Shown: positions 2,740 to 63,114 of the stretch, piece by piece | Position numbering within the stretch: the first letter of the stretch is position 1 | Layout: each line of letters begins with the position of its first letter | From: Promethearchaeota archaeon | GTDB lineage: Archaea > Asgardarchaeota > Lokiarchaeia > Sigyniarchaeales > SOKP01 | Assembly: GCA_048938005.1 (NCBI GenBank) | Contig: JBHLMQ010000008.1 | Span: 17,509-81,508 of the forward strand | Length of the DNA: 64,000 nucleotides | Direction: 5' to 3' | Made by a program: the position numbers and the translations under genes | The notes under the pieces: generated by a model | Database searches by the model: none | The model's input: only the letters and a program-made list of their open reading frames with translations | What the model was told of the DNA's origin: nothing

Positions 2740-5256
2740 TTAAAATTTTACTTCTAGTTCATCCATCTCCGCTAAGAGTTTAATTTTTTTCTCTTTCCAT
2801 TCTTTTCTCATTTTTATATCGCAAAAACATGTATATATCGCTTTTTCTCCTTCCTCTAAACTTTCTCGTGCTAAATCATATTTCTCCGTTTCTTTATAGC
2901 ATTTAGCCATTTGAAGATATGAATTATAAGTAAACCAGCCATATGGTTCAAGCTCTAACGCTTTCTGTATTTCTTTCAGTGCCTTTTCGTATTCCCCGAA
3001 GTCTGTTAAAATTTCGGCAAAAGTATCATGATAATTCCCATCATCAGGATCTAATTCAGTCAGTAGTTTTCCTGCGTTTATCGCTTCTTCCTTCTCATTG
3101 TTATATAAATGATAATATACTTTATGATTAAGGATATCAAGATTATCTGGATATTTTTCTCTCAATTTATTGACGATTTTTAAACTTTCATCAAATCTAT
3201 TCATCTTTTTCATAAGATTCGCTTTAAGTAACAATAAATCCACTTCTTTTTCAGGAAATTTCTTAAGATTTTTTTCAATTAGTTCTGTTGCCTTCTCGAA
3301 ATCGTCTTTAGAAAAGAACATTTTATATCTATAATAAAACAATTTAAGATCTTTAGGATCTAACTCCATAGCAGTATTTATTGCTTCAATCGCATCATCC
3401 AATTCATTTAATTGGTTTAAAACGAGGCTCTTAAATAGAAAATACTTTGCTTTATTTGATTTATTCGAATCTAATGAGATGGCATGATCGATATCATCTA
3501 AAACTTGATCACTCCTCATTTCTTCGAGATCCAATTCATAAATAATTTTTTGCCCTAATATTAAAGCTCTAGTTGCATAGCTAATAGGATGATCTGGATA
3601 AGTCTTACTTAATTTATTGCTGAGTTTAAATGCTTTTTCAAACCGTCCATATGTTAAATGGCAAAAGATTGATATGAAATAATAAGAGATCATAGAATTT
3701 TCATCTTTGTCATCAATATAAGGTTTTACCTCTGTATTTAATAATTCTATGGCTTCTTGATGTCGAATCAAATAACTAAGGACAATTGCTTTCAAGAAAA
3801 GTAGGTCTATATTCTCCTTATCTAATTCAATCTCAGCATTTACTTTATTTAGAGCAACTTCATGCTCCTTTTTTTTCATAAAATATTTTGCTTCTTCAAA
3901 AAGTTCTTCTATTTTTGGGGATGCAAAGAACGTTAACACTCTCAATAATGAAGGATCTATATAATATGTCTTCTGAGTTTGCTCAACAATTTCAGGTTGG
4001 GAACTAATTGATTGAAAAACCTCAGGGATATTTCTCCACGCAACACCTTCTAATTTATCTAAAGTATCCACTAATGTCCTCTTAGTTTCTATTTTATAAG
4101 CTAAGTAATTTATATATTCTGGTAAAAATTTCTTTAATGCTTCTTTTAAATCCATTACAAATAAGTTATCGCATATTTCATTTAAAATCGCATCAACAGT
4201 AGATTCTAGAGTTAAGATCGGTCTGTCATCTGTGATTTTTTCATATAATTTGTTCAAATAGGTGAATTTGGTAATATGATCCTCAGTAATCGCACTTAAA
4301 ACTTTCTCTATCTTCTCATTTGCCTGAAAATAATATATCTTCTCATCTTCAACTTCTAACCTAAAAAATTCAATTGGATACACATTTTTCTCTACGATTT
4401 GCCGAATATTAAATTCAAGATCTAAAATATCAATATTATATTTTTTAGAGAAATCTTTTGTTGATTTATAAAATGGATATTGATTTGGGTGATTCATCGA
4501 AAGGAAAAGTAATATCTTATTAAAATCTTCTTCACTGTCTAATGAACCTTTTAATTTTTCAAAGGGTAATGTTAAAACATTATTCAAAAATCGAAATTTT
4601 ATATCATCATCTACAATATCATATTTTTCAAAAAATCTAATTGTCCTCTTAGTAATCTCTTCAATCCTCTTACTTTCTTCATTTAAGATAGATTGTCTGT
4701 CTAAGTCATAAGATTTTAACATTCTTGAATATTCCGATTTACCAGCAAGAGTGATCCTATATTCTTTATTCTCTTTCCTGATAAGCCCATTATCCATTAG
4801 CAAATTCAAATTCTTTGATAATGATGATTGATTAATATAAACAGGTGCTCTTTCATCAAGAAAATCCGACCATTTTAAGTAATTATTATTATAGGCCATC
4901 CAGAGAATTATGTGATCATAATTTCTTTTATCACTAATTGCCTTAGGAGGATAACTTAATTTTCTCTTTGCTTCTTTAGCTCTAGATAATTCGTTATATC
5001 TCTCCTCACCTTTAGAAGTAATTTTATAATGCCCTCTCTTTATTTTTTCAATATACCCCTTACTATCCAACTTATTTAGATAATTTGATAGAGTCGATTG
5101 GGCAATATTTATGGGGTCCTCCTTAAAATTCGACCATTCTACAATTTCGTTATTTTTGAGCATCCAGAGAATAATATGTTCAATATTTTTTTTCTGAAAA
5201 CCTAATTGGACATAAATTTCTTCTGGTGGATAATTCAATTCTTCTGTTCCACTCAT
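2740..5256 (-). CDS. Tandem winged-helix + TPR-repeat protein (putative transcription regulator)
   Basis: Two repeated wHTH units (IAQSTLSNYLNKLDSKGYIEK...YKITSKG; INQSSLSKNLNLLMDNGLIRK...YRITLAG) and many C-terminal TPRs (e.g. KALKEIQKALELEP). Confidence 0.8.
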   Translation of the reverse strand: MSGTEELNYPPEEIYVQLGFQKKNIEHIILWMLKNNEIVEWSNFKEDPINIAQSTLSNYLNKLDSKGYIEKIKRGHYKITSKGEERYNELSRAKEAKRKLSYPPKAISDKRNYDHIILWMAYNNNYLKWSDFLDERAPVYINQSSLSKNLNLLMDNGLIRKENKEYRITLAGKSEYSRMLKSYDLDRQSILNEESKRIEEITKRTIRFFEKYDIVDDDIKFRFLNNVLTLPFEKLKGSLDSEEDFNKILLFLSMNHPNQYPFYKSTKDFSKKYNIDILDLEFNIRQIVEKNVYPIEFFRLEVEDEKIYYFQANEKIEKVLSAITEDHITKFTYLNKLYEKITDDRPILTLESTVDAILNEICDNLFVMDLKEALKKFLPEYINYLAYKIETKRTLVDTLDKLEGVAWRNIPEVFQSISSQPEIVEQTQKTYYIDPSLLRVLTFFASPKIEELFEEAKYFMKKKEHEVALNKVNAEIELDKENIDLLFLKAIVLSYLIRHQEAIELLNTEVKPYIDDKDENSMISYYFISIFCHLTYGRFEKAFKLSNKLSKTYPDHPISYATRALILGQKIIYELDLEEMRSDQVLDDIDHAISLDSNKSNKAKYFLFKSLVLNQLNELDDAIEAINTAMELDPKDLKLFYYRYKMFFSKDDFEKATELIEKNLKKFPEKEVDLLLLKANLMKKMNRFDESLKIVNKLREKYPDNLDILNHKVYYHLYNNEKEEAINAGKLLTELDPDDGNYHDTFAEILTDFGEYEKALKEIQKALELEPYGWFTYNSYLQMAKCYKETEKYDLARESLEEGEKAIYTCFCDIKMRKEWKEKKIKLLAEMDELEVKF

Positions 5257-13103: not shown

Positions 13104-15056
13104 TTAGAGTTTCAATTTACTCCGCCAAAAGTTAATTTTTTGGATGAGTTCTTCTTTTTCGACCTCATTTAATAAATTCATATTTCGCTTGAGATCGGTA
13201 GTACCCATTCTTATCTGCCTCAAAACAGCACTGAAACCTTTTCTTTCAAGGAGATCATCTTGTAATTTCTCTAAAAGTAAGGCAATCTGAGCCCCTGGCA
13301 GTGTATCAATCTTACTCAATATATTATCAAATTGGCTAGATAGGAAACCATCTGTTGATATAAAAGCAGCAGGTTGAATATCTGGTGTTTTTTTAATAGG
13401 TTCTAATTGAGGCACTAAAGGCTTAGACGGTATTGGTTTAATAGGTTCTTCGGCAATAATTTCAGGTGTTTCAATGGGTTTGGGTAGTATTTGTTCAGAT
13501 ACCCTTGATGTTGGTGTGATGGGTTGCTGGAATCGCGGTTGCGCAAACTCGCGCACAGGAGCTTGTTTTATCGCCTGTAAAACTTCTACTTGCTCATATT
13601 TTTTACTCTGAATCCATACATCTTCTAGAACAGCAGCAAACAGTTTTACGTGTTCCTCTAAGACTGATCCCATTCCAGCAATTTCGATTTCCCCCGTTTC
13701 TGTTTTTGATACGACACAAACTACAACTTCTTCGAAATCTTTATTTATCGACCATAAATTTTCTCTAGAATAATGCCTTATTGAAATATTAGAAAGATCT
13801 GCAACCTCTTTAAATCGTAATTGATCCTCTGGATCAGTTAAATCAAAATTTGTGGATATTCTAATGTTTATATGTTTTTTTAATCGTGATAAAGCAATTA
13901 AATCAATATCCTCCAATTTAGGAGCTACAATATGGACTCGCATTTTCACTCTTGATAATGCTGCATTTATTTGTGCCATGATCCCTTCAACGCTTCGTAC
14001 AAACCATACATCTTTAAAACTTAACAGTGAAGCTTGTTTTGAGCGCTCCCAAAATTCATTCATAGTAAGCTCGGCACTTTCCAATTGATTTATAATATTA
14101 TTGACTATATCATCTTGTATTGTCTCGAAAATTTCTTTCCGGAATAGATCTTTAAGTTCTGTGATTCCAGAAATAATATCATCATAAACTCCTAAAACTC
14201 TCTTTTCCAAATCTTCTAAAGTACTTTTAAGCCCGCTCTCTATGTCTGTAAATACAGTTCCTAAATCAGTACCAATCTCCCCGGCAGTATCTGTAAGACT
14301 TCCTAATTGATTTATGACTTGATCGAGCATGTTCTGTGTTGTTTGAACGAATTTATCCTTGAAATATTTAGTTATTTCTGTAAATTGTTCTGAAATTACT
14401 TTAGAAACAATTTTTTCAGCCATACTACTCAATGCTCCAACCCTAAACTGTTTTTCAAATCTATTTGCTATCTCTGATTTTATTAATTCTAATTGAGACT
14501 CCATAGCTTCAAATTCCTTAGTTATATCCGCGGGTACAATTTCTTTTAAATTATAGATAAAGCGTTTTACATCTTGAAACCTCTTAACTTGTTCAAGTTC
14601 TTTTTCAAAGCGTTCAAATTGAGTCTTTATTTGAGCTGGCAATTTTGTCTTCATTAATTGAAGGTATGTTCGATAATCATCTAATTTTTTAAGTTTTGCG
14701 GAGTGTTGTCCTAAAGAATCAAATTTTTCTTGTATATTCTGAGGAGTTATTTGTTGAAATGATTTTATGGCTTCTTTGAAGTGATGAATCTGGCTTACAA
14801 GTGCCACGTATGGAGGTAATGCTTCATAAATTGGCGTTTTTCCAGGGATTTGCTTGAGAAGCCCTTTTTGAAATAGGTTATTTGCGATTGCTGCTGCTCT
14901 CTCTTCATTAACATTAGCAAGTATAGCAATTTCACCAACCATTACAGGGCCTCTTCCTGTTATCTTATAATATGTATTGACTTCATCATGAGCTAATCCT
15001 ATTAGTTCTAAAACTTGTTTTGTTACTGAATCATTGTCACTTAACAAACTGAACAT
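13104..15056 (-). CDS. TrmB-like HTH / long coiled-coil / PLD-like effector domain protein
   Basis: LELIGLAHDEVNTY...GEIA...LFQKGLL...YEALPP (TrmB HTH); amphipathic helical middle; VWFVRS...HIVAPK TrmB C-domain-like region; Pro-rich linker. Confidence 0.6.
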   Translation of the reverse strand: MFSLLSDNDSVTKQVLELIGLAHDEVNTYYKITGRGPVMVGEIAILANVNEERAAAIANNLFQKGLLKQIPGKTPIYEALPPYVALVSQIHHFKEAIKSFQQITPQNIQEKFDSLGQHSAKLKKLDDYRTYLQLMKTKLPAQIKTQFERFEKELEQVKRFQDVKRFIYNLKEIVPADITKEFEAMESQLELIKSEIANRFEKQFRVGALSSMAEKIVSKVISEQFTEITKYFKDKFVQTTQNMLDQVINQLGSLTDTAGEIGTDLGTVFTDIESGLKSTLEDLEKRVLGVYDDIISGITELKDLFRKEIFETIQDDIVNNIINQLESAELTMNEFWERSKQASLLSFKDVWFVRSVEGIMAQINAALSRVKMRVHIVAPKLEDIDLIALSRLKKHINIRISTNFDLTDPEDQLRFKEVADLSNISIRHYSRENLWSINKDFEEVVVCVVSKTETGEIEIAGMGSVLEEHVKLFAAVLEDVWIQSKKYEQVEVLQAIKQAPVREFAQPRFQQPITPTSRVSEQILPKPIETPEIIAEEPIKPIPSKPLVPQLEPIKKTPDIQPAAFISTDGFLSSQFDNILSKIDTLPGAQIALLLEKLQDDLLERKGFSAVLRQIRMGTTDLKRNMNLLNEVEKEELIQKINFWRSKLKL

Positions 15057-15065
15057 TACCTTTTT

Positions 15066-16193
15066 TTATTTTTTATATGCTTTTTCAAGAAATTCCAAAT
15101 GCTTGATTGCTACATTTTTCTTTAACTTCCCATCTATTCGATCCTTTCGAATTTTTTCAATTATATATTCGGGATAAAATGTATGAACAACAATATCACT
15201 TAATAAAAATACCCATACTGTATCTTTACTGTCTTTTATTATTTTAATAATTTGATCCTCTTCCATAGCCTTTAAAAAACTCCCAACTTGGCCTAAACTT
15301 TCTCCGGGTCCTTTAGGAATCTTGTTTAATGGATATACTCTTTCCCTAAATAAAGTTAAATAATCATAGTTATCCGGATTAATTAGAATTCTGGCAATTT
15401 TTATATTATCTTCAAATGTTGGCTTATAATTTGCAAAAAAATTGTTTACTTCTTCGAGATATTTGGTTGCTACTTCTGGTGTTGGCAAATTTTTCTTAGC
15501 GTCTTCGACTAACTTTGTTACTGGTGATCTAAAAATTGCAAAATCATTTAGAAGGAATAAGGTGATATCCGTATCACCTTCAACCCAATCTTGCATTATT
15601 AATCCAGTTTTAATAAAAGGATCTAAAACATATTCGATATTTGGAATTATTTTCTGCAATCTCTCTTCGATAATTCCTTGTAATTCTCTCCTAAATAATG
15701 CTCTTTCTTGTAAAGCCTCCAGTATTGCCCTTGCTTTTTCACTGGTATAAATTTGTGCTAATCTTTGCTCTTTTGATAAATTTTTCAATCGGTCTAATAA
15801 AATTAAAGTATTCTTTAGGTAGAGTCTTATAGTTTTTACGATTTCATAACTTTGAGATACATTCATACTCATTTGTCTTAAATACTTTAAGAGATCTTCA
15901 TTAACCTCTTTTAATACCGCTTCACCAAACATTTCTGGATCTTCTCCGAGTTCTAACATTAAATTGATCATTACAGGCATATCTGAATCCATACCAGTAA
16001 AATAACTCCATACGTTCGAGCGCGCTTTTTCTAATCGTACTAATACATTTCCCGCCGCTCCTGCACCTGTAATGTGAGCATAAAAAATACGCATCATATC
16101 ATCCAAATCTATTTTAACTTCTTCTGGATACTTAAGTTTAACAACTAAACCTTGGTCCTCAGTCCATTCAGTTATAATATAACCATATGGCAT
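15066..16193 (-). CDS. uDENN/longin-like + tandem winged-helix protein (NPRL2-like architecture)
   Basis: N-terminal EWTEDQGLVVKLKYP and SYFTG...EDPEMF; colinear with the C-terminal ~360 aa of the 2083-aa protein. Confidence 0.6.
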   Translation of the reverse strand: MPYGYIITEWTEDQGLVVKLKYPEEVKIDLDDMMRIFYAHITGAGAAGNVLVRLEKARSNVWSYFTGMDSDMPVMINLMLELGEDPEMFGEAVLKEVNEDLLKYLRQMSMNVSQSYEIVKTIRLYLKNTLILLDRLKNLSKEQRLAQIYTSEKARAILEALQERALFRRELQGIIEERLQKIIPNIEYVLDPFIKTGLIMQDWVEGDTDITLFLLNDFAIFRSPVTKLVEDAKKNLPTPEVATKYLEEVNNFFANYKPTFEDNIKIARILINPDNYDYLTLFRERVYPLNKIPKGPGESLGQVGSFLKAMEEDQIIKIIKDSKDTVWVFLLSDIVVHTFYPEYIIEKIRKDRIDGKLKKNVAIKHLEFLEKAYKK

Positions 16194-19100
16194 TTAATCT
16201 TCTCCCTCTTTTTTAATGAATATTTTTTCAATTTTATCTGCTTTTTCAGTTTGAATTAAATCCAAATCTAAAATTTTTACTTGATTTTGGAAATTAGTTT
16301 CAATGATATCATCTCGCTTTGGTACTAAAATAGGTTTTGTCTTTTTTGTTTTTCTAACTTTTTTCTTTAACTTTCTGATTTTTCTTACCATTGGAGGATA
16401 TTTATAATGTGTTTGATAGAGCGTGAAAACCGTAATAAGTACAATGATCCCCCCAATTAATGCATATATAAGCCAACTCAAGTCAGGTCCAGCAGTAGTA
16501 GAAGGGGTGCTTACTATCAATGTTATCTTATATTCTTTAAAATTATATTCCCCGGAAATAGCATTTATTCTTATTTCATGAACTCCTTTTCGAACATTTG
16601 GAAGGATTGCATTATATATCCCATCATTATCTAGATCTTCAAGTTCTCCCTGTCCATAGGCCCATGTAAATGTCACATTAGCATTTTTAATAGTGTTATT
16701 TAAAGGATCTTTTAAGATAATATTTAATGATACATCTTCTCCAACATAAACTTCTATTTGATCACCTCCATCTGCTCGACTAATATTTCCAACTATTCTA
16801 CTAACTTCAATCCAAAAAACTATTGATTGCGGTTGATAATTTGGGACTTCTGCAAATACTGAGAATTGAGTGGTTCCATAACCTAAATCAATAGCTTTTA
16901 TACTATAATTGTAATAGTTATTTGTTTCATTAAAATCACCTATTCCTGATAAATTGACACTTGCATTTGATAGATGTGTACCTGTTAAATTATCAGTGAA
17001 AGTTATAGTCACATTTATTATCGCATCAAGGTTAACTGATATTTTGTCATTATTTCCTTTTTCTTCTCCATTTAAAAATAAATTTAAAGAAGACGCTAAT
17101 TCAGTAATATACACCCTAATTATAACAGATTGGGCTTCATATTTATACTTATTAATAGAGATAATGAATGATGGGATAGTTTCTGATGTATAAGCAGAAG
17201 TATTACACTGCAACTCATATTGTCCTACAACAGGTTGATTCAGATAGTAATCACCTAACCAACTAATCGAAATATCACCAACAGCATCTATTCCAATTCC
17301 AGGATTGTTCTTTTCAGTAAAATTAAATTGTAAAGTAAAATTTTGCTTCCAAGGGACACTGAAAAAATTATCTTCTACCGTGAGAAGGGTTTCTTTTACT
17401 ACATCAACAGTGATATTTATTACTTTATTTAAATGATATGTAGAATTGGCATAAATTGTCAATGTATTATTTCCAGCGCTAGCTTTAGATGCATTAAATA
17501 TGAATAAATAAAACCCCGGACTTGTTTTAGTGAAATTATGATCCTCACCTGCAAAATTTGTATATACAAGACCATCATCTATTGCTGTATCATCTATTAA
17601 ATCTCTAAACGATACATAAATATTAACTTCACTGTCGTCAATCACATTTTCAATGAAATATATGCCTTGATCAGGTTCAAGTTTAGAATCATGAATTACT
17701 GCAAACTTTTGATAAATAATTCCTGTTTCATTTGATTGAAATGATGAATATGAATTATTCCAAGTGATAACCACTTCATATTCTCCAGCCTTATAATTAG
17801 GAACATTGTTAGGTATCATAAATGGGTCAAAATAAACAATCCCATTATCGTTAACTTGCTTATTTTGATATTCTCCTGTCCAAATTGTTCCATCCGGAAA
17901 TCTTAAGTACAGGGTTGCGTTAGTACTTCCGATATAACTAGATATATCAAGTTGAGGACTTACTATTTCTCCTGTTATATTAATATAATCTCCACTCATG
18001 AATGAATTATTAAGCACCCATGGTCCAGTAGCAGTAGAACCCTTATACACATCCAACTCTGAACAATAATTAGGTGATACAGCTGTTAGCTTCCAAAATC
18101 CATTTGTATTGTTTGTTATGGAACTTACTGGAATATTTACAACTTTTTTGTTTCCGTATTCTGTTATAGTAGTTTGAGAAATAGAATTAGGATTTTGAGA
18201 GAAAGATACTCCTATTAAATTGTAATCTGAAGGGTATTCAACAGTCATATTTGTTTCTTCGTATTCTGCTGGAATCTCCATATGGGCATAAGTTGTCCAA
18301 TCCACATTACTATTATTAGATACACTAAAAGCTGAGCCTTGATAATCTAGATCTGGATCAGCTGCATAATAACTTTCAGGCGTATATTTATTTGCAAACA
18401 AATTCAAATTTGCGTCAAGGTCTATTTTGTAGCTTATCCAGCTCCCGTCTTCTTCAAATGTTAAAGGCCAATTCAAATTGCTACTAAAATTAGCAATGAC
18501 AGATGATTGGATGCTTCCATTCCAATTACCCATAATTCCAACATTACCTTCACCATAATTAGCATTATCATTTACATCTTCACCATTTAATTGTAAATCA
18601 AGTTGAGATGGTTTTGTTTTAGCTTTAACTACTAAGGATACATTATCAATGAGAACAGAATATGCGGTAGAATAACCAGGATCTTCATGTCCACTAACCC
18701 TTTTAAATTCTAAAGTTATATTCATACTTTTAACTCCAACAGGAAATATTTGTTCATCATTGACATCTAAAAAAATAGGTTGCGGATTGTACCATTGCCC
18801 TGAAGGATTACCACATGCGTCTAACATTGATGCAAGGCCATTTCCCCATAAGGTTTTATCATTTATTATAGTTTGTAATACAAAATGGTTATTATATTGG
18901 TCACTGTACTTTGGAAAGGCAGCAAAACTTAACCAAGCTTCATCTACATCCCCTCTATCAAGTTCAAAAGTAGTTTCCCACCAACACTTATCACCAACGT
19001 CATATTCTCCACTCTCGTCTCCAACCCTTAATTCCAAGCAATCAGCTCCATCAGTACCATCTCCTACCCCATCATAATAATTTCCTGAAAAATCATTATC

Positions 19101-19619
19101 ATGTCCAATATCTCCTTCATCAAATGTCCAATTGGCAACGTCAAGACTATCATTATCATTTGCACCAGGGCCATTATCGGTTCCAGCATGAAAAGTCCCA
19201 TTAATCCAATTTCGTGTATCATATAAGTCCTTTACCGTAGAATTTAATTGATACCCATTCCATCCATATAATTCTACTTTAGCATTAGTATTATCATAAG
19301 AATTATTATAAAAACTTACAGCTAAATTAGTTTTTGTTCGATTGGCATAATGAGTTACGTTCCAAGGTGCTCCATTACCACTAAATATATTATCAGTCGT
19401 TAAAGCCTGTGTTTTTAAATCTTCAGAAAATAATTGTTCCTTTTCATTATAACTTTGATTAGAATTCTGATTTATGTTAAGAGTATTTAAAAATGCAATC
19501 ATCAAAAAACTCATAAATAAAACCGATAAAACTATAGTCTTTTTTTTATTAACTCTATTCAAATTTAAAAATCTAGATCTGTTTACTCTCAATTCAATAC
19601 ACCAATGAAGGTTTTTCAT
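16194..19619 (-). CDS. Large single-pass cell-surface glycoprotein with Ig-like repeats
   Basis: N-terminal hydrophobic segment, beta-rich body with many NxS/T sequons, C-terminal TM (WLIYALIGGIIVLITVFTLY) then basic KYPPMVRKIRKLKKK. Confidence 0.8.
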   Translation of the reverse strand: MKNLHWCIELRVNRSRFLNLNRVNKKKTIVLSVLFMSFLMIAFLNTLNINQNSNQSYNEKEQLFSEDLKTQALTTDNIFSGNGAPWNVTHYANRTKTNLAVSFYNNSYDNTNAKVELYGWNGYQLNSTVKDLYDTRNWINGTFHAGTDNGPGANDNDSLDVANWTFDEGDIGHDNDFSGNYYDGVGDGTDGADCLELRVGDESGEYDVGDKCWWETTFELDRGDVDEAWLSFAAFPKYSDQYNNHFVLQTIINDKTLWGNGLASMLDACGNPSGQWYNPQPIFLDVNDEQIFPVGVKSMNITLEFKRVSGHEDPGYSTAYSVLIDNVSLVVKAKTKPSQLDLQLNGEDVNDNANYGEGNVGIMGNWNGSIQSSVIANFSSNLNWPLTFEEDGSWISYKIDLDANLNLFANKYTPESYYAADPDLDYQGSAFSVSNNSNVDWTTYAHMEIPAEYEETNMTVEYPSDYNLIGVSFSQNPNSISQTTITEYGNKKVVNIPVSSITNNTNGFWKLTAVSPNYCSELDVYKGSTATGPWVLNNSFMSGDYINITGEIVSPQLDISSYIGSTNATLYLRFPDGTIWTGEYQNKQVNDNGIVYFDPFMIPNNVPNYKAGEYEVVITWNNSYSSFQSNETGIIYQKFAVIHDSKLEPDQGIYFIENVIDDSEVNIYVSFRDLIDDTAIDDGLVYTNFAGEDHNFTKTSPGFYLFIFNASKASAGNNTLTIYANSTYHLNKVINITVDVVKETLLTVEDNFFSVPWKQNFTLQFNFTEKNNPGIGIDAVGDISISWLGDYYLNQPVVGQYELQCNTSAYTSETIPSFIISINKYKYEAQSVIIRVYITELASSLNLFLNGEEKGNNDKISVNLDAIINVTITFTDNLTGTHLSNASVNLSGIGDFNETNNYYNYSIKAIDLGYGTTQFSVFAEVPNYQPQSIVFWIEVSRIVGNISRADGGDQIEVYVGEDVSLNIILKDPLNNTIKNANVTFTWAYGQGELEDLDNDGIYNAILPNVRKGVHEIRINAISGEYNFKEYKITLIVSTPSTTAGPDLSWLIYALIGGIIVLITVFTLYQTHYKYPPMVRKIRKLKKKVRKTKKTKPILVPKRDDIIETNFQNQVKILDLDLIQTEKADKIEKIFIKKEGED

Positions 19620-19790: not shown

Positions 19791-20594
19791 CTAAAAAGCA
19801 CTTTTTACAAATCCACCATCTACTTGAATTACAGTTCCAGTGATAAAAGTTGCCCTTTCAGATGCTAAAAATACCACTAAATTTGCTAATTCCTCAGGTT
19901 TTCCTAATCTTCCTAATGGTATGGGGTTTATCCATGTTTTCTCAACCTCATTATAAGATTTTCCTGTATCCTTTACTGTTTTATTTATCAATTCCCTCAT
20001 GCGATTTGTAAGTGTTGGACCAGGACATACAACATTCACTAAAATATTATACTTTGCATATTCATTTGCGAGTGTTTTGGCAAATCCTACAACTCCCATC
20101 CTTGTCGTATTTGATAAAACCAAATTATTTAACGGTTGTTTTACAGAAACAGATGTAATCGCAATAATCCTTCCACTGCCTTGTTTTATCATAATAGGAA
20201 TCACTAAATCTGTAATGCGAATAAAAGAACGGAGATTTAAATCAATTGAATTTGACCAATCTTGCTTACTTATTTTATCGATGGGAGCTGAAGGGGGCCC
20301 CCCAGCATTATGCACCAGAATATCGATCCTCCCAAATTCTTCTAAAGTTTTCTCCACAAGATTCCCTATTTGATCTTCGTACATTAAATCTGCAACAATC
20401 GAAAAAATCCTATTCTCTGTAGTAATGGATTCTATAGATTCTATTTGGTCCTTTGCTTGGTTTAGATTTTTTTTTGAGCGACTACAAATCACTACATTAG
20501 CTCCCTCTTCATAAAATCCCTTAGAACAGGCTAATCCTAATCCTTTACTCGATGCTAAAACTAATGCGACCTTATTTTTTAAACCCAAGTTCAT
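19791..20594 (-). CDS. SDR family oxidoreductase
   Basis: ASSKGLG, NAGGP, NVVCPG, GRLGKPEE, ITGTVIQVDGG; SNTTR replaces canonical YxxxK; ATG (MNLGL) preferred as start. Confidence 0.9.
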   Translation of the reverse strand: MNLGLKNKVALVLASSKGLGLACSKGFYEEGANVVICSRSKKNLNQAKDQIESIESITTENRIFSIVADLMYEDQIGNLVEKTLEEFGRIDILVHNAGGPPSAPIDKISKQDWSNSIDLNLRSFIRITDLVIPIMIKQGSGRIIAITSVSVKQPLNNLVLSNTTRMGVVGFAKTLANEYAKYNILVNVVCPGPTLTNRMRELINKTVKDTGKSYNEVEKTWINPIPLGRLGKPEELANLVVFLASERATFITGTVIQVDGGFVKSAF

Positions 20595-21048
20595 TTTAAA
20601 CAACTCTTATCCTTATTTAGAATTCGAAATGAAATCAATAAATTTAGTACATTTTCGATAAAATTCATTATATCTACTATGATTTTCAGCAATCAAGCAT
20701 TCAAAAGTATAGGGATAAATAATTTTTTTTTGTCTGTTTTTATCATTACTCTATGAAATCTTTTTTCTATTCCATCTCGCATATGTTTATATCTATCTAC
20801 CGTTTTCAATTCTGATTTCATTTCTAATTATACTTTCGTGATATTAATATATGAAAAATATCTTTTATTAAAATTATTAGGAATTTAATATAAACCTTTT
20901 AAAATCTTCTTCTAATGAATTTATTTTCCTAAATTTCCTATGAAAGATTTTAAAAAGATAATTTTATAAATTCAAATAATTATAATAGTTTTAAAGATTG
21001 AAGAATATATTATTAAATATATAATCAAAAAATTAGTTAAAAAGGTGT

Positions 21049-21510
21049 ATGAGTATTAGTATTGATACCAAAAGTTTCGATAACATTCTCAGTAAAATAA
21101 TAAAGAGTGAAAGCGGTATCAAAAAAGTAATTTTAGTTGATAGAACTGGTTTAACCATCGCAAGCGTTTCGAAGTTTTCCTATTTCCCAGCCGATGTTGA
21201 CGGGATTGGGGCAATTGCAAGTGCAGTTTTCTGTGCTTCTGAAGAACAAGGAAAAAATCTAGAACTTGGTAATCTTGAGATAGTTACATCGGAATTTGGT
21301 GGTGGTAAAATATTTGCGTCATCATGTGGACCTAAGGGTGTTTTAACGCTTATTTCCGATCCAGACATCAATATAGGATTAATTCGGCTTATTTTAAAGA
21401 GATCAGGCGATGAGCTTAAAGAAATTTTGGATGAATTTTTAGCAGAAGCTCCAGATGTAATGGATAGTGGTTTAGATTTATCAGATTTAGATTCACTTAC
21501 ACCTGATTAA
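21049..21510 (+). CDS. Roadblock/LC7 domain protein
   Basis: ILVDRTGLTIAS...IGAIAS...INIGLIRL; acidic tail. Confidence 0.88.
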   Translation: MSISIDTKSFDNILSKIIKSESGIKKVILVDRTGLTIASVSKFSYFPADVDGIGAIASAVFCASEEQGKNLELGNLEIVTSEFGGGKIFASSCGPKGVLTLISDPDINIGLIRLILKRSGDELKEILDEFLAEAPDVMDSGLDLSDLDSLTPD

Positions 21511-36841: not shown

Positions 36842-36875
36842 TGATAAGAAATATTAAATGAAATTCGCATTCCAC

Positions 36876-37436
36876 CTATTTATTTCCCCATCTTTTAATA
36901 TCACTTTCTATTCCGAATTGATCTAGAATTCGACCAACAGTATGATCAATAAGTTCATCAACGGATTCTGGTTTAATATAATAAGAAGGAACAGGTGGTG
37001 CAATTACAACATCTAACCTAGCTAATTTAAGCATATTTTCTAAATGTATTGGACTTAGTGGACTCTCTCTTACAATTAGAATTAATTTTCTTTTCTCTTT
37101 AATGGTTACATCTGCAGCTCTAGTAATTAAGTTATTAGAATAACCATTAGCTATAGCTGATAAAGTTTTCATAGTGCAGGGAACAATAATCATGCCATCA
37201 ATTTTATGCGAGCCACTAGCAGGTGGAGCAGTTAAATCATTGACATCATAATAAATTGAAGCTAACTGTTGAAGATCAGTAATTTTGATATTAGATTCAC
37301 TTAAGATTACTTGTTCAGCTGCTTTAGATATAATTAATGCGGTTTCAATATTTTTTTCTTTTAAAATATTTAATAATCTAACGGTAACTAATATACCTGA
37401 AGCTCCAGTTATCGCAATAAGAATCAAAATTCTCAC
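36876..37436 (-). CDS. ubiX: Flavin prenyltransferase
   Basis: AITGASG, PPASGS, PCTMKTL, RAADVTIKEKR, RESPL. Confidence 0.95.
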   Translation of the reverse strand: MRILILIAITGASGILVTVRLLNILKEKNIETALIISKAAEQVILSESNIKITDLQQLASIYYDVNDLTAPPASGSHKIDGMIIVPCTMKTLSAIANGYSNNLITRAADVTIKEKRKLILIVRESPLSPIHLENMLKLARLDVVIAPPVPSYYIKPESVDELIDHTVGRILDQFGIESDIKRWGNK

Positions 37437-41838: not shown

Positions 41839-41854
41839 TTTCATTTTAGAATTT

Positions 41855-56862: not shown

Positions 56863-59800
56863 ATGAAAATTAATAAAAAATATGACAGAAAGTCAAAAAA
56901 TAAAATAAAATTCTTAGCAATTCTTTTATTCACATTAATTCTTACAACAACAATTAATATACAATTATTTACAATTTTTGGTAGAAATACAAGTAAAAAT
57001 ATTGTAAAAGATCCTATGGAAAAATTATCTCTTTCTACCCCTTCAAACAATCTTCCTAATGCAGATTATTTTAATTATTATAAGGTTATAACCATTGATC
57101 ACACAAAAGTTAATGGATCAGACCATCACAACTTTCCTGTTTTAATTTCTATTATTGACTCAGACTTGGATGACAAAACTCAGTTTGATGGTGATGATAT
57201 CGCCTTTGCTAATAATACTACTTGGTTGGACCATGAGATAGAACTATATAATCCTAGCTATAGTGCTACTCAAGCTCAATTGATAGCATGGGTCAGGATT
57301 CCCTTGTTATCTACTTCTAGTGATACTATAATATTCATGTTTTATGGTAACTCAACTATGGGCTCCCAAGAAAATCCAACAGGAGTTTGGAATACCAATT
57401 ATAAGGGAGTATGGCATTTAAAGGAAGATCCTGGTCCTGGAATTCCAGGAGATATTAAAGATTCAACTAGTAATAGTAATCACGGAACTGCTATTAGTAT
57501 GGGCTCCAGTGATCAGGAACCAGGACAGATTGATGGTAGCTTAAATTTTGATGGAAATGCCGATCCTGATTATGTTAATATCAATAATATTGGCCCAGGA
57601 ATAAAAACTATTGAATTTTGGATGAATCCTAATACTCTCGGTAGTTCTGATTCTTATAATACAGGTTATAGGAGTCCAAGTGCAACTGGATATGACTATG
57701 ATGAATGGACTAATCCACAAGACGCTTATAGCAGTAATAATATTAGAGCATCAGAATCGACTAATTATGACGATCAAGATTGGTACAACTTTAATTTTAA
57801 TATACCTGCTGAGGCTACCATTGATGGAATTTTGGTGTCCATTGAAGCACATACCTCACAACAATACCAATCAACTGGATGTAGAGTTAGACTCTCTGGG
57901 AATGGGGGAATACGTTATACTAGTTATAAATCTCAAAGTTGGTATAGTACAATTGATTCATATAGATCTGTTGGTGGTTCGTCAGACACATGGGGGGAGT
58001 CGTGGTCACCCTCTAATTTTTCTAATTCTAATTTTAGAGTTTGGTTAGAAAAAACAGGTTCTACTTATTACACTTTAAGTGTTGACCATATAAGGATTAT
58101 TGTTTATTATAGTATTTTATCTGATATACCCATAATTGATTTAAATGGCACTACTCAAATTTCTATTGATGCAAATAGTGGTGAAATAAAAACCCTTAGT
58201 TTCCCGGGCGCAACAAATATTTATGTTAACGGCGTAAATAGCTCGACTGTAACCGCAGGTGAATGGTATCATGTGGCAATTACAGATACAGTTGGCATTA
58301 TTAGTTCGACTTTGGATATAGCTAGGAATGCTTCAAGCTATTTTGATGGTACTATTGATGAGTTTCGTCTCTCCAACGTAGAACGTTCAGAAGATTGGAT
58401 TACTGCTGAATACAATAATCAAAAAGATCCTGGTAATTTTTTCTCAGTTGGAGGGGAAGAGACTCCACTTACCGATCTACAGGTTAATGCCACTGATTTA
58501 TATGGCAATCCAATACCAAATGTAAATATTTCTCTCTATAAAAATAATGATTTAATTAGGAGTGATATCGCAGAGGCTAATGGAAGTGTTATATTTGAAG
58601 ATTTAATTTCTATTGAAGATAAATATAACTTTACTGTCTCCATGACATCAAATATTCTTCCCTATAAAAGTATAACTATTAATAGAACAACAGAAGCTAT
58701 CCTTATAGAAGGAGCATTTCAGACTATTAATTTAATTTGCAACATAAGCAGAAATATCTTTAATGTGGTAGATAATGATGGGGTTCCCCTTGATTCGGGA
58801 TGGATAATAGTTGGTAATAGTTCAGATCCAATTCAGAATTGTACGATTGATAATTCAGGACATGCAACATTTCGATGGTTAAACACTAGTCCTTATCAAT
58901 ATAATTATACAGTATGGTATCAAGATTTTAATTACAATCCGAAAAAAATTATAATAGCATCGGGGGATATATTTACACCAAATTTCGATGTCAATGTAAC
59001 TGCGATCTTAACTACAGTTAACTTTACAGTGTTAACTTATGATTACCCTTACACCCCTGTTAATGGTGCAAAATTAATACTAGACAAGCTTAGTCCAGTT
59101 GAAAATATAGTAAATTTAACCACGAATTTAAATGGAAAAGCAACACTTAGATGGGTAAATTCTTCTGGAATAAATTCAAATTATTCCTTAAGAGTTAGTT
59201 TTTATGGACAATTCTGGGATTTTGAAATACCCGGTATGACTGGAGTAGTAGGGAAGACAAATTTTACTGTGAAAGCTGAAATTACTTATAATATAAGCAT
59301 TCATTTCGCTCCAACTGAGTTAGAAAAATTGGAAACAAAATTAGTATCTTTAAATCCAACAAATAATATTATTGTTGAATGGGGTTCGAAAATAAAATTA
59401 AGAGCTCTTTTGAATGTTACCAAAGTACCTTCTGGACCTGAATATAAAGATTTACTAGGACCAACTTATGCAGATTCAATGAAATATCAAATATTTGAAG
59501 ACACAACTCTCATTCAATCCAATATAATGTCTCCAGAAGATGATTATATTGGTAGACATCAGGTAGAAATTGAAACTGATGAGTTAGAAATTGAGACCAT
59601 ATATACACTTAAAATAAGTGCTCAAAAATCTGGTTATGTTTTACCTCCAGATGTAATAATGTTTCTATACCTTAATGAAAATGAGTTAATATTAAACCAA
59701 TCACAAAACGATGATTCATCCCAATCAGTATATTGGCAAGAGAGTGTTGAAATGTCAGTAAAACCTTATGGTATAATTTCTGAATTTTCTACTTTTGAAT

Positions 59801-62800
59801 ATAATATTTATGATATAAATTACGATACACCATTTAAGTTTTCAATTCCAGATATCTCAAACGATTGGAATTTATCACAGATTACCTTTAATATTTATGA
59901 CATTATTTGGAATGCTCCACCCGATGATATAAATATTACTATTGCGGTGAATGGTTATGGAATCCTCGAAGTTTTTAATATTAGTAATCATGATGGCCAC
60001 GATTATGCGCAAGGTATATGGACAGGAATAGAGCTTAACATAGACAAAAGTAGTCCCACTGGTGATAACAGTTTTGAGTTTTCCATTGGAGGGACATTTT
60101 CTGGTAATATAGACATTATAGCTGATGCCTTGTTTATTAGAGATAAAATTAATGTTCAATATTCAAGATTTAACATTACAGAGACTATATCTCTTTTAAC
60201 TGCAGCTGAAGGATGGGCTATAAAAAATATTACTTTTGAACTCTATAACTGCTTCAATACTTCCAATTGGACACCAATAAATCCCTTATCTGACATTAAT
60301 TTGAATATATCTACCAATGAAGGAATTAAATATGCAATGGATTCAGGAAGTTCTGGCTATGGAAAGTTAATCATAGATGATCGAATTATTTACCCTTTAG
60401 ATAACCAATTCTTATTCACCGTAGAAAGTAATCCAGATGTTATGTTTGATGTTATAATTAAAGTTGAATACATTCAAGAATTTCAGCAAAATCAATATCT
60501 AGAGACAATTTATATATCGAAGACAGAATATAACAATGGAGGAACTTTTCAAGTCAGAGTCGATGAGAAAGATTGGATTGAAGATTCTACAAAATTACTG
60601 ATTAGTGAAATCTACGACGGTGAAAATTATCTTCTTCCATCAGAAGTGGCAATGAATATTACAATTGGTGGAACCTCTTATAACGTTTCTGATGTTATTT
60701 TAGGGCAAGGAATTTTTTCATTAGAAAATTTAGATAAAGATACTATATACCAAGCTGTTATAAGCACAAACAAACCAACTATTTTCAATCTAAATTTTAC
60801 AATAGACTACTCAAGAATGGAAATTTATGAAACAAAAGGAATTGTTACTTATATAATAGAAAAATCTGCTATATTTGGAACTGTTCAGTATAATGAGGAT
60901 CTGGAATGTTATCTACAACCTATAAATACAACTATACTCGATACCATAGATTATACTATAAGATTCACTGTTATTAAACAAAATTATGCTTCAGCTATAA
61001 AAGACTTAGATTTGACTGTATTAGATCGTCTAACATTGATTAATGGATCTTCGGGATTCTTCAGAAAACCTGAAAATATTTATATTGGTGATGCTATTAA
61101 TTTTTCTTTTGTATATACTGATTTATTAAATGGAACTAAAATTACTGATTTAACAGCTCAATATTATATATGGGAGAAATATGATATTGATGGCAATGTA
61201 ATTGCTAGTGGACAAGGAACTTTAGTCACTACTACCGATCAATTACATGTATTAGATTTTGATACTGAAAATTTAACTCTTGGAGAATATTTGTTAATTG
61301 CTACAATAGGTAAAAAAAATTATGAATATAAAAATGCCATAATTTCTTTAACTGTCAATAAAAGAACAATTATTCCTCTTCTCAACGATGGAATTAACCA
61401 AATAAATGTTAAAAAAGGAGTAACTGCTACTTTAAGATTAGAATTAACAGATCCTACAAGAGGGGATATTCCATTACAAAATGCAACAGTTTTATTGACT
61501 ATAATGGGGAGGGACTATGAATTTGAAGAAAGTGAGCCTGGTATATATATTTTTAATTTTCACACAGGCAATATAGATACATTTTTTAATCCAAAAACGT
61601 TTATAGGAAAAATTAATATTTCTAAAGAAGATTATAAATCTGAAGAATTAACTATTACTATCGTTGTTGGAATGGATGAGATCTTTCCTGGTATACCTAC
61701 ATTTTATTTCTTAGTAATTGTGATTGGAATTCTTGGAATAGTGGGTAGTCTTGTAGCATATAGAGCATATAAACATGCTAAAATTCCTACATTTGTGAAA
61801 AAAGTTCGAGCGATGAAAAAAACTATTGATGGAGAAAAACCCATTTCAGAAGAGATTTTATATAGAGATAAAGAAGTATTTATTGGAGAAATTATAAAAA
61901 ATAAATGGAAAGCAATTGGATTATCCATAGAAGATATTTTTAGTATAAACCTTGAAAAAGAGAAAAAAGAACAAAAAATACAAAAGAAGATTTCTGAATC
62001 TGTTAGAGAGCATGACAAAAAACCTCTTGGACTAGTATTAATGAAATGGGACGAAAAAATTGGCACTAATATCATAGCTAAATATCCCGAAGATCTCAAA
62101 ATTACAACAAAAAGTTTAATGCAAGTATATAGCACCCATGAATATAGTGGTGAACAAGGTGTGATCACATTAATAACAGAATCATTAAATATTATCTCAT
62201 ATTACACTGGACCTGAGAGTGGTTATTATCTTCTCCTACTTTTGAATTTAGATGACGATCCTGATGTATATGAAGCGGGAATGGCAGATAATGTACGGAT
62301 TATTTTAGAAAATTTGAAAGATGAGTCTTATTTACAACTGATTCCATCACTATTTCAGCGATTATCTGTATATCCATCGCTTAGTGAGGAGGAAATCCTT
62401 ATCTCCCATTATCAAAATGGAATTAAACGAACAATTATTAATATTTTAAGAGAAGAAGGAGTAATTTCCAAATCTGAATTGGATATATGGCTCAAAGATA
62501 AATTTATTGGAGGATTTTTCGACATCGACGCTATTTTGATGGATCTTATTAAAATGGAAATAATAAAAGTCGCTTCCATCAAAGGTTTGCCCTCTGAACT
62601 CATTTTTCTAATCAAAGATCTTTATATGCTTCGAATACCCCCAATTAAATTATTAGATAATCTTGTGAACCGTGGTTTGCCTTCTCAATTTGCTAAAGAA
62701 TATTTAAATAATATAAAAGAATTTTTCCAAGATTATCATCCAACAGAAGAAGATAACCTTAAAATTATTAATGCATTAATCAATCCACAAGTTTTTGAGA

Positions 62801-63114
62801 CTTTAAGATTATTGAGGACTGCGATTGTTACAAGACAAGATCTTGAAAAACTTAGAAAGAAGGGAGTTGATGATATTTATGGTGTTTTGAAATTACTTTG
62901 GGACAATAAAATGATTAAAGTTTTCCATGATGATAAAGATAATGAATATTATGCACTTCTTTCTGATTTCTATATTGATTTTATCTTTCCAAAGTATCTT
63001 TTAAAAGCTGTTAAAACAGCATATGAGCAAAAATCAAAAGTTAATAAAGTACTTGTTGAATATCTTAAAATTCTTGAAATTACATATCTCGATTTAAAAG
63101 CATTGGAAAAATAA
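56863..63114 (+). CDS. Giant single-pass receptor-like protein: DUF2341-like + LamG/ConA + Ig-like ectodomain, TM, cytoplasmic uDENN/longin + wHTH domain
   Basis: NFPVLISI...DGDDIAF...AWVRIP...MFYGN (DUF2341-like); GVWHL...WYHVAIT...FDGTIDEFRLS (LamG); TM FYFLVIVIGILGIVGSLVAY; KIPTFVKKVR; GLVLMKWDEKIGTNIIAKYP. Confidence 0.8.
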   Translation: MKINKKYDRKSKNKIKFLAILLFTLILTTTINIQLFTIFGRNTSKNIVKDPMEKLSLSTPSNNLPNADYFNYYKVITIDHTKVNGSDHHNFPVLISIIDSDLDDKTQFDGDDIAFANNTTWLDHEIELYNPSYSATQAQLIAWVRIPLLSTSSDTIIFMFYGNSTMGSQENPTGVWNTNYKGVWHLKEDPGPGIPGDIKDSTSNSNHGTAISMGSSDQEPGQIDGSLNFDGNADPDYVNINNIGPGIKTIEFWMNPNTLGSSDSYNTGYRSPSATGYDYDEWTNPQDAYSSNNIRASESTNYDDQDWYNFNFNIPAEATIDGILVSIEAHTSQQYQSTGCRVRLSGNGGIRYTSYKSQSWYSTIDSYRSVGGSSDTWGESWSPSNFSNSNFRVWLEKTGSTYYTLSVDHIRIIVYYSILSDIPIIDLNGTTQISIDANSGEIKTLSFPGATNIYVNGVNSSTVTAGEWYHVAITDTVGIISSTLDIARNASSYFDGTIDEFRLSNVERSEDWITAEYNNQKDPGNFFSVGGEETPLTDLQVNATDLYGNPIPNVNISLYKNNDLIRSDIAEANGSVIFEDLISIEDKYNFTVSMTSNILPYKSITINRTTEAILIEGAFQTINLICNISRNIFNVVDNDGVPLDSGWIIVGNSSDPIQNCTIDNSGHATFRWLNTSPYQYNYTVWYQDFNYNPKKIIIASGDIFTPNFDVNVTAILTTVNFTVLTYDYPYTPVNGAKLILDKLSPVENIVNLTTNLNGKATLRWVNSSGINSNYSLRVSFYGQFWDFEIPGMTGVVGKTNFTVKAEITYNISIHFAPTELEKLETKLVSLNPTNNIIVEWGSKIKLRALLNVTKVPSGPEYKDLLGPTYADSMKYQIFEDTTLIQSNIMSPEDDYIGRHQVEIETDELEIETIYTLKISAQKSGYVLPPDVIMFLYLNENELILNQSQNDDSSQSVYWQESVEMSVKPYGIISEFSTFEYNIYDINYDTPFKFSIPDISNDWNLSQITFNIYDIIWNAPPDDINITIAVNGYGILEVFNISNHDGHDYAQGIWTGIELNIDKSSPTGDNSFEFSIGGTFSGNIDIIADALFIRDKINVQYSRFNITETISLLTAAEGWAIKNITFELYNCFNTSNWTPINPLSDINLNISTNEGIKYAMDSGSSGYGKLIIDDRIIYPLDNQFLFTVESNPDVMFDVIIKVEYIQEFQQNQYLETIYISKTEYNNGGTFQVRVDEKDWIEDSTKLLISEIYDGENYLLPSEVAMNITIGGTSYNVSDVILGQGIFSLENLDKDTIYQAVISTNKPTIFNLNFTIDYSRMEIYETKGIVTYIIEKSAIFGTVQYNEDLECYLQPINTTILDTIDYTIRFTVIKQNYASAIKDLDLTVLDRLTLINGSSGFFRKPENIYIGDAINFSFVYTDLLNGTKITDLTAQYYIWEKYDIDGNVIASGQGTLVTTTDQLHVLDFDTENLTLGEYLLIATIGKKNYEYKNAIISLTVNKRTIIPLLNDGINQINVKKGVTATLRLELTDPTRGDIPLQNATVLLTIMGRDYEFEESEPGIYIFNFHTGNIDTFFNPKTFIGKINISKEDYKSEELTITIVVGMDEIFPGIPTFYFLVIVIGILGIVGSLVAYRAYKHAKIPTFVKKVRAMKKTIDGEKPISEEILYRDKEVFIGEIIKNKWKAIGLSIEDIFSINLEKEKKEQKIQKKISESVREHDKKPLGLVLMKWDEKIGTNIIAKYPEDLKITTKSLMQVYSTHEYSGEQGVITLITESLNIISYYTGPESGYYLLLLLNLDDDPDVYEAGMADNVRIILENLKDESYLQLIPSLFQRLSVYPSLSEEEILISHYQNGIKRTIINILREEGVISKSELDIWLKDKFIGGFFDIDAILMDLIKMEIIKVASIKGLPSELIFLIKDLYMLRIPPIKLLDNLVNRGLPSQFAKEYLNNIKEFFQDYHPTEEDNLKIINALINPQVFETLRLLRTAIVTRQDLEKLRKKGVDDIYGVLKLLWDNKMIKVFHDDKDNEYYALLSDFYIDFIFPKYLLKAVKTAYEQKSKVNKVLVEYLKILEITYLDLKALEK

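Follow-up and report, generated by a model that had tools for sequence, protein, structure and literature searches.

A conserved Lokiarchaeial gene unit links variable surface proteins bearing a common polybasic tail to a candidate longin/winged-helix adaptor and, usually, a TrmB-like protein

Introduction

A 64,000-nucleotide stretch of DNA from a Promethearchaeota archaeon (GenBank assembly GCA_048938005.1, contig JBHLMQ010000008.1, positions 17,509 to 81,508 of the forward strand; hereafter, the window) carries three closely packed open reading frames (ORFs) on its minus strand at 13104-19619, for proteins of 1141, 375 and 650 residues. The first encodes a surface protein, the second a cytoplasmic protein and the third a TrmB-like protein, and the stop codon of the first is followed immediately by the start codon of the second. 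Elsewhere in the window, a 2083-residue protein holds a homologous membrane end and a homologous cytoplasmic domain in one chain. The locus raises the question of whether the first two ORFs are the halves of a broken receptor gene or separate genes for parts that act together, and, if the latter, in what way these would act.

The arrangement is a conserved unit, composed of one to three genes for variable surface proteins (hereafter, receptors) with a common transmembrane segment and polybasic tail, then the gene for the 375-residue protein (hereafter, the adaptor) and usually a TrmB-like gene. The receptors, the adaptor, which is a predicted longin/winged-helix protein, and the TrmB-like protein probably work together at the membrane. 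The more specific proposal of a conserved Lokiarchaeial membrane module, in which a shared adaptor would dock on the receptor tails and have a TrmB-like partner, seems to us to stand at about an even chance. The pairing of receptor tail and adaptor is drawn from two independent kinds of evidence, namely operon coupling across 79 related loci and a clade of paralogues in which receptor and module are fused.

Two separate genes at a conserved junction

The features of the operon, in coordinates of the window, are as follows.

16194..19619, minus strand: surface-protein gene, 1141 residues, from the ORF call, with the stop codon included in the coordinates
16191..16208, minus strand: junction element read from the sequence, with GAGGGAG at 16208-16202, TAA at 16196-16194 and ATG at 16193-16191
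15066..16193, minus strand: cytoplasmic-protein gene, 375 residues, with its stop codon at 15068-15066
13104..15056, minus strand: TrmB-like protein gene, 650 residues, with its start codon ATG at 15056-15054

The codons at the junction, GAT (16199-16197), TAA, ATG and CCA (16190-16188), are in a single frame, and 9 nucleotides separate the stop codon of the adaptor gene from the ATG of the 650-residue gene. The GAGGGAG element lies 8 nucleotides 5' of the adaptor ATG, and this Shine-Dalgarno (SD) sequence sits inside the final codons of the receptor gene. Every sequence detail given in a preliminary description of the locus, the tails after the two transmembrane segments among them, was found here.

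A database search with the adaptor returned 395 homologues; among the 120 matches listed, all are 341-378 residues long and 69-100% identical to it. Scanning of genomes confirmed 97 relatives, from which 79 loci were kept (labels including 58 Promethearchaeota and 12 other Asgard), across which adaptor identity ranges from 56 to 87%. By tblastn, the adaptor was found in 79 of the 79 loci, the receptor tail in 74 and the TrmB-like gene in 69. The loci hold 81 adaptor-family ORFs, all of which stand alone.

A gene broken by a recent nonsense mutation, or one expressed by programmed read-through of the TAA at 16196-16194, would account for a stop and a start that abut in frame, and the read-through product would equal the architecture of the fused paralogue. 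The related loci, however, speak against both. A stop codon precedes the adaptor start in all 75 readable junctions (TAA in 65, TGA in 7 and TAG in 3), with no sense codon in any relative at the position of the stop. The gap from stop to start runs from -8 to 163 nucleotides, in any frame: it is -8 to 10 nucleotides in 46 junctions, 33 of which have a gap of exactly 0, 11-60 in 25 and more than 60 in 4, so that 29 gaps exceed 10 nucleotides, and the two genes are in different frames at 25 of the 75 junctions. An SD-like motif is found in 52, and in 70 the alignment puts the start at this ATG. Fused orthologues are absent from the 81 family ORFs, and the listed homologues all have the length of the adaptor by itself. 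We consider a broken gene or read-through extremely improbable at this locus, and as a general mechanism it is close to refuted by these comparisons. The preliminary description had preferred two real genes to a recent nonsense mutation, citing the SD sequence ahead of the second ATG, and the relatives bear this out.

The abutting stop and start are best read as a sign of translational coupling; termination-reinitiation occurs in archaea. In the junctions with a gap of 0 nucleotides, the receptor gene ends in codons for a K-E-G-G-E-like stretch that double as the SD sequence.

Of the adaptor copies with 1 kb or more of sequence downstream, 73 in all, 68 are followed by a TrmB-like gene within 700 nucleotides, and the operon with a TrmB-like gene that had been proposed for the window is thus syntenic in relatives. 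Database locus tags are consistent with this gene order (e.g. JSV62_04670, _04685, _04690). The module has the receptor-adaptor pair as its core, to which the TrmB-like protein is frequently added as a third part. Some genomes (e.g. at loci L043, 241-16411, and L047, 3-12578) contain two consecutive units, in which receptor(s) and adaptor are followed by receptor, adaptor and TrmB-like protein; the first unit has TGA and a 7-nucleotide gap at its junction, and the TrmB-like gene is present only in the second.

A common tail on variable surface proteins

The membrane-proximal features of the receptor are as follows.

16419..16481, minus strand: transmembrane segment of the 1141-residue protein, residues 1047-1067, LSWLIYALIGGIIVLITVFTL
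16197..16418, minus strand: cytoplasmic tail of the 1141-residue protein, residues 1068-1141

The receptor begins with a hydrophobic signal or anchor, at about residues 27-46 of the long form, and continues with an ectodomain of ~1000 residues, a single transmembrane segment and a 74-residue cytoplasmic tail. Its start is uncertain within 19503-19619, the public gene call for an identical protein being 1102 residues and thus 39 codons shorter. Pfam gave only weak Ig-like matches (residues 963-1020, E about 0.09). The ectodomain contains 37 N-x-S/T sequons, against 16.9 expected from composition, and the tail has none; for the 2083-residue protein, the corresponding numbers are 46 against 24.3, or about two-fold, and none in the cytoplasmic part. 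In each of the two large proteins, a hydrophobic segment at the N-terminus is combined with one transmembrane segment near the C-terminus, and this distribution of sequons, enriched in the ectodomains and missing from the cytoplasmic parts, fits surface glycoproteins with an N-out, C-in topology.

Directly after the transmembrane segment of the receptor comes KYPPMVRKIRKLKKK. In the tail, the juxtamembrane motif YQTHYKYPPMVRKIRKLKKK..KP, which is polybasic, is succeeded by a K-R-D/E-x-I-I stretch of helix-like character, and the end is acidic; the 32 residues starting at residue 1067 carry a net charge of +13. The 1141- and 2083-residue proteins are the only ones of the window with the juxtamembrane motif P-x-x-V-[RK]-K-x-R-x-[LM]-K-K. 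At the related junctions, the upstream ORF ends in all 75 cases with a transmembrane segment, YQxHFKYPPxVRKIRKLxKK... and a tail of ~55-95 residues, as judged by regular expression, and all of the 59 tails that were aligned keep P8, R12 and R15. The ectodomains of the same proteins range from 514 to 1691 residues and often cannot be aligned with that of the 1141-residue protein.

The 979 kb of sequence in the loci contain 110 matches to the tail motif (one ORF being counted twice), every one of them upstream of an adaptor gene and on its strand: 77 are adjacent to the adaptor, 33 lie farther upstream in tandem and none is elsewhere. Since the motif is kept in tandem receptors away from the adaptor gene, it is not retained just for the sake of the SD sequence. 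Tandem receptors have a median identity of 47% over the membrane-proximal 400 residues, with 67% nucleotide identity in the region of the transmembrane segment and motif. No recent gene conversion was seen among their tails, and by these identities the tandem paralogues are old duplicates.

A paralogue clade fused to a receptor

The second large protein of the window is encoded as follows.

56863..63114, plus strand: fused paralogue gene, 2083 residues, from the ORF call, Pfam and alignment; its ectodomain contains DUF2341, Laminin_G_3 and CarboxypepD_reg-like repeats
61702-61761, plus strand: transmembrane segment, residues 1614-1633
61762-62019, plus strand: linker with the homologous basic motif, residues 1634-1719
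62020-63111, plus strand: module of a longin domain and two winged helices, residues 1720-2083

The transmembrane segment is directly followed by KIPTFVKKVRAMKKT. By BLASTP, the adaptor aligns end to end with residues 1721-2075 at 28% identity over 378 columns (E=1e-28), and all motifs on which the preliminary description had based its colinearity fall inside this alignment. The two receptors are related over the last ectodomain repeat, the transmembrane segment and the tail (E=1e-7) and share nothing else. A profile of 59 tails matched a profile of 10 fused linkers over 52 columns in hhalign (E=2.5e-4). Fused and separate forms therefore both exist, and the homology and adjacency of a Rosetta-stone pair are found here. 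The further claim that the operon is a split version of the same receptor did not hold, given the little that the ectodomains share and the position of the fused forms in the family tree.

A family profile searched against 1.84 billion representatives gave 401 members at E<=1e-3. Among the best 150 of these 401 and the two window proteins, 101 rows cover at least 300 profile positions: 67 stand-alone, 14 C-terminally extended, 11 with an insertion in the longin domain and 9 fused to a receptor. The last are the 2083-residue protein and eight database cluster representatives; P0195 is a further, truncated fused representative. In the family tree, the nine rows form one clade (support 99/97) that was recovered in 100% of 200 bootstrap trees, the bootstrap not being fully settled. 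In a quick tree this clade is nested among stand-alone forms, and the adaptor belongs to a distant clade. Forcing the two clades together cost 123 log-likelihood units and was rejected (p-AU 0.0018, for a group named after the tree had been seen). The 11 rows with an insertion had been considered as a membrane-anchored, 'N-extended' subgroup, which was ruled out, as the insertion is inside the longin domain and there is no transmembrane segment.

The adaptor is thus a distant paralogue of the fused domain. Because the fused forms are one clade nested among stand-alone ones, and joining them with the adaptor clade is rejected, the fusion seems to have arisen once, as a derived state in another paralogue lineage, with separate genes as the older state, in so far as an unrooted tree can order them. 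In ten of the ten fused proteins inspected, the transmembrane segment is followed by the basic motif, a linker of ~75 residues and then the module. This order is the expected product of stop loss in a receptor-adaptor pair.

Divergent from the fused gene, and 459 nucleotides from it, is the gene for a 658-residue protein (54427-56403, minus strand) with two small-GTPase domains, one Arf-like (~residues 100-227) and one Ras/Roc-like (492-651).

Other members of the longin/winged-helix family carry C-terminal additions: SIR2_2 and TPR in P0172 and P0198, TIR in P0171 (E=4.6e-12) and TPR in P0179. Two representatives (P0154, P0162) have only the winged-helix half, preceded by helix-hairpin-helix domains at the N-terminus. 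These fusions hint at use of the family in conflict or DNA-linked systems. A conflict or recognition system could also make sense of ectodomains that are highly variable in length and sequence and of tandemly duplicated receptor genes: the ectodomains would serve to detect phage, partner cells or non-self, with the module as a defence-type sensor or switch. The trio itself, however, has no effector domain, and the tandem receptors, with the identities given above, are not rapidly exchanged cassettes. We consider this explanation highly unlikely.

Fold of the adaptor and a possible GTPase role

An AlphaFold model of the adaptor, calculated from a 65-sequence alignment, has a mean predicted local distance difference test (pLDDT) score of 93.3 and a predicted template modelling (pTM) score of 0.86; it superseded an unusable model from a 9-sequence alignment (pLDDT 53.8). 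The model comprises the following parts.

15924-16193, minus strand: longin domain, residues 1-90, beta-beta-alpha-beta-beta-beta-alpha
residues 91-138: helical hairpin
15525-15773, minus strand: winged helix 1, residues 141-223, with a match to Mnd1
15177-15416, minus strand: winged helix 2, residues 260-339, with a match to PH1932/HlyU
after winged helix 2: C-terminal helices

The longin part consists of strands 2-11 and 15-22, helix 30-43, strands 48-54, 59-65 and 74-81, and helix 86-110. Sequence profiles back only the winged helices of this fold: in the PDB, residues 133-218 matched Mnd1 (E=0.013) and residues 248-316 matched PH1932 (E=3.2e-4), with a further match to HlyU (E=4.2e-3). No Pfam family matched the adaptor at E<=0.1, and no NCBIfam family matched it. 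Over 65 family members, Pfam gave only helix-turn-helix (HTH) types among the 25 most-hit of 110 matched families, with weak HTH_20, HTH_5 and TrmB matches in 4-7 members. Two ESM Atlas searches returned only Asgard clusters without names.

The nearest full-length matches of the model in a Foldseek search of the PDB are the GATOR1 subunits NPRL2 and NPRL3 (best match 9o5d_D, probability 0.99 over 347 columns; also 9o5a_C, 8fw5_C, 7t3b_B and 7t3b_C). The TM-score of the best match is about 0.26, from which it follows that the domain orientation differs. The longin domain matched, with probability 1.00, those of Lst4, FLCN-FNIP2, DENND1B, C9orf72-SMCR8 and a Lokiarchaeal Roadblock-Longin protein (e.g. 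4zy8_B, TM-score 0.58; 8yqg_A, TM-score 0.50). By E-value, the top fold matches were LOV histidine kinases (TM-score 0.16) and CodY; these were discarded as look-alikes with a sensor and a long helix, because the strands follow the longin order and all domain matches of probability 1.00 are longins. No DENN core or dDENN was found: the DENND1A/1B match is limited to the longin part (123-143 columns), and the remainder is the hairpin and winged helices. The preliminary description had called the protein a uDENN-winged-HTH transducer. A longin (uDENN-type) fold followed by winged helices is indeed predicted, but a DENN core is lacking and the nearest folds are NPRL2/NPRL3.

The family shares the motif W10-D11-x3-G15 ... 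P23, H40, S63, in which W10 is kept in 60 of 65 members, D11 in 47 and G15 in 61. The adaptor has a net charge of -6 (family mean -11), its longin domain -8 (family mean -7.3) and the putative recognition helices of the two winged helices -1 each. In the operon there is no second adaptor paralogue. In one locus (L038, 3109-4740), the adaptor frame is 543 residues from stop to stop, with a C-terminal extension of ~165 residues before the TrmB-like gene. The window encodes another longin protein, of Fuz/MON1 type (127 residues, 45948-46328, minus strand), beside isoprenoid genes; hhalign gave no relation between it and the adaptor family profile (probability 0.7%).

The main rival to the adaptor reading is that the longin/winged-helix protein, once recruited by the tail, is a platform, GTPase-activating protein (GAP) or guanine-nucleotide exchange factor for a small GTPase. 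It would then tie the surface proteins to cytoskeleton, protrusions or membrane traffic, and the TrmB-like protein would be a scaffold and not a transcription factor. The closest folds, NPRL2/3, Lst4, FLCN-FNIP2, DENND1B and C9orf72-SMCR8, are GTPase-regulating longins, and the W10-D11...G15 spacing equals that of W33-D34...G38 in C9orf72, as described in section 2.4 of PMC12290439. The charge of the recognition helices fits binding of protein better than of DNA, the fused gene is head to head with the double-GTPase gene, and a Roadblock gene lies ~1.4 kb from the operon, with ORFs of like size in related loci. In 15 of 25 orthologues of the 650-residue protein, the helical region also gave weak matches of apolipoprotein type. 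On the other hand, the conserved trio includes no GTPase gene. The same section of PMC12290439 describes, for GAP-type longins, a GP motif before strand 2 and an Arg finger, and both are missing here: among the 65 family members, position 16 is A, L, V or T with no GP proline, and residues 1-90 contain no near-invariant Arg. In MK-D1, moreover, GTPase genes are generally outside operons with longin genes, according to Tran et al. (PMC10933270). On balance, we judge a GTPase platform unlikely.

A combination of the two readings can be conceived, in which the longin/winged-helix adaptor, at the plasma membrane, would recognise the common tail motif on many different surface glycoproteins and regulate a small GTPase at that site. 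The system could then be a prokaryotic forerunner of the tail-motif/adaptor logic of cargo sorting in eukaryotes, or of membrane-anchored signalling platforms of the GATOR/Ragulator type, and the fused paralogue beside its double-GTPase gene would be a one-chain version. This is a doubtful extension, put forward speculatively.

The TrmB-like protein and local regulation

The third gene of the operon encodes the following parts.

14811-15008, minus strand: TrmB-type winged helix, residues 17-82, Pfam PF01978
remainder of the 650-residue protein: helical region of ~240 residues, conserved alpha/beta region (~340-490), Pro-rich linker and C-terminal helical domain

The PF01978 match (E=6e-6) scored 26.5 bits, the cut-off being 25.6; the TrmB HTH is found in 25 of 25 orthologues (best E 5.3e-11), and residues 8-96 matched the TrmB structure 3qph (E=1.9e-5). 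Past about residue 100 there is no Pfam, NCBIfam or PDB sequence match and no TrmB effector (sugar-binding) domain, and the NCBIfam equivalog of TrmB, NF040851, scored 17.7 bits against a cut-off of 600. The HTH region (residues 1-100) has a net charge of -1 and is not basic. Among the 120 matches listed, database homologues are 450-742 residues long. A fusion of adaptor and TrmB-like protein was looked for by BLASTP of the 650-residue protein against 150 family representatives, among which there was none; the C-terminal extensions of family members are the SIR2/TPR, TIR and TPR additions named above or sequence without an assigned domain.

It is conceivable that the adaptor and the 650-residue protein are simply winged-helix regulators of the adjoining surface-protein genes, with no contact to the tail. 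Regulator genes often neighbour their targets, the TrmB HTH is present in all 25 orthologues, and the second winged helix of the adaptor is ArsR-like by its PH1932 and HlyU matches, to which the weak HTH_20, HTH_5 and TrmB matches of family members may be added. Against this, the fused clade, with its nine rows and one truncated member, ties the module covalently to a transmembrane protein behind a homologous tail, a link that puts the module at the membrane. The tail motif also persists in tandem receptors that do not adjoin the adaptor gene (33 matches), the recognition helices of the adaptor are acidic or neutral and the whole protein is acidic. Local regulation by itself appears quite unlikely.

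Proposed mechanism and the points against it

In the membrane module that we propose, translational coupling would keep synthesis of the adaptor in step with that of the receptors, and the adaptor would dock on their cytoplasmic tails, one adaptor being shared by one to three receptors. The strongly basic stretch of the tail (+13) may meet the strongly acidic longin domain (-8). The adaptor would relay the state of the surface protein to the TrmB-like partner, which could then alter transcription or act as a scaffold beneath the membrane.

Several points weigh against this proposal. Binding of the adaptor to the tail is something we infer from gene order and the fused paralogues. The polybasic stretch could be a mere positive-inside topology signal or a lipid anchor, and the final codons of the tail are also constrained by the SD sequence carried there. 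Some tail-bearing proteins have locus tags distant from that of the adaptor (e.g. CEE43_01155 versus CEE43_18555). As the fused paralogue is only 28% identical to the adaptor, the argument from fusion crosses an old duplication; in addition, no TrmB-like gene flanks the fused gene, the only one in the window being the operon's own. The genomes are related and share a wider gene order, so that gene order alone overstates the functional link: an SDR-like gene lies upstream, on the strand of the adaptor, in 40 loci (39 related ones and the window), and a DUF6786-like gene lies downstream in 33.

Five adaptor copies, finally, have no adjoining TrmB-like gene. Three of these (L043, L047, L048) are first copies of a duplicated unit and two (L040, L042) belong to a divergent subgroup, and in L042 the gene after the adaptor is on the opposite strand. 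As the 650-residue protein is without the effector domain of TrmB and has an HTH region that is not basic, DNA binding by it is at most putative. We likewise infer the link between adaptor and TrmB-like protein, the passage of a signal across the membrane and the role of the TrmB-like protein as a transcription factor.

Neighbouring genes

Upstream of the operon by 171 nucleotides, on the same strand, is a short-chain dehydrogenase gene (19791-20603, minus strand). The Roadblock/LC7 gene (21049-21507, plus strand) encodes 153 residues, and the family of ~150-residue ORFs that includes it is found in 19 loci, on either strand. An 838-residue protein at 2740-5256 (minus strand) has N-terminal winged helices (HTH_45, HTH_34) followed by a long TPR region. 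A mevalonate/isoprenoid gene cluster occupies 35165-47512 and contains genes for HMG-CoA synthase and reductase, a UbiD-like protein, the large and small subunits of AcnX, an MVD-like protein, a GHMP kinase, an amino-acid-kinase/FMN_dh fusion and a polyprenyl synthase.

Comparison with known systems

Longin, roadblock and small-GTPase genes abound in Asgard genomes without an assigned partner, and gene order, as noted in PMC10933270, is seldom of help in pairing them. Here, a protein built like NPRL2/3 gains a concrete predicted partner, the short conserved tail of variable Lokiarchaeial surface glycoproteins. This bears on how surface proteins on Lokiarchaeal cells and their protrusions are wired to the cell interior, and the 658-residue double GTPase beside the fused gene may be relevant should the longin module be a GTPase regulator.

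NPRL2-like longin proteins of Asgard archaea are already known. They are described in the main text of Liu et al. (bioRxiv 10.1101/2020.10.19.343400) as an Asgard-specific expansion with unusual fusions, and appear as a class of eukaryotic signature proteins in the relevant list of PMC9834061. The fusions that the former text names are to two-component signalling domains, in contrast to the receptor fusion described here, and the terms transmembrane, TrmB, wHTH and winged are absent from this main text. Literature searches, which did not cover supplements that may list the family, found no published account of the operon, the tail motif or the receptor fusion.

ToxR and CadC are membrane-tethered one-component regulators, and systems in which a receptor sequesters a regulator also exist. 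The fused paralogue resembles the former in being a single-pass protein with cytoplasmic winged helices, and the separate form resembles a receptor holding a soluble regulator. Unlike in ToxR/CadC, the winged helices here are C-terminal to the transmembrane segment, the opposite polarity, and they are accompanied by a longin domain, a giant, apparently glycosylated ectodomain and non-basic recognition helices. With TrmB and TrmBL2, the 650-residue protein shares the N-terminal winged helix (PF01978, 3qph) but not the effector domain, the other ~550 residues being helical, alpha/beta, Pro-rich and again helical in turn.

The likeness of the adaptor to the DENN, FLCN/FNIP and C9orf72/SMCR8 proteins lies in the longin fold (3tw8_C, 6ulg_N, 6lt0_C and 7o2w_A, probability 0.99-1.00) and in the W-D-x3-G spacing. 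Where those have a central DENN/dDENN, the adaptor has a hairpin and two winged helices. The closest resemblance in overall plan is to NPRL2/NPRL3 (Npr2/Npr3 of GATOR1/SEACIT), which Levine et al. (PMC3747258) describe as joining a longin domain to at least two winged helices. Both are ~375-380 residues long, with an N-terminal longin domain and then helical and winged-helix repeats; NPRL2/NPRL3 act at a membrane-bound signalling complex, and a membrane site is proposed here too. The adaptor differs in having no sequence-level match to them, no Arg finger or GP motif and another domain orientation. No DEPDC5-like partner was seen; the implied partner is instead the tail of a surface receptor, encoded with the adaptor in a prokaryotic operon.

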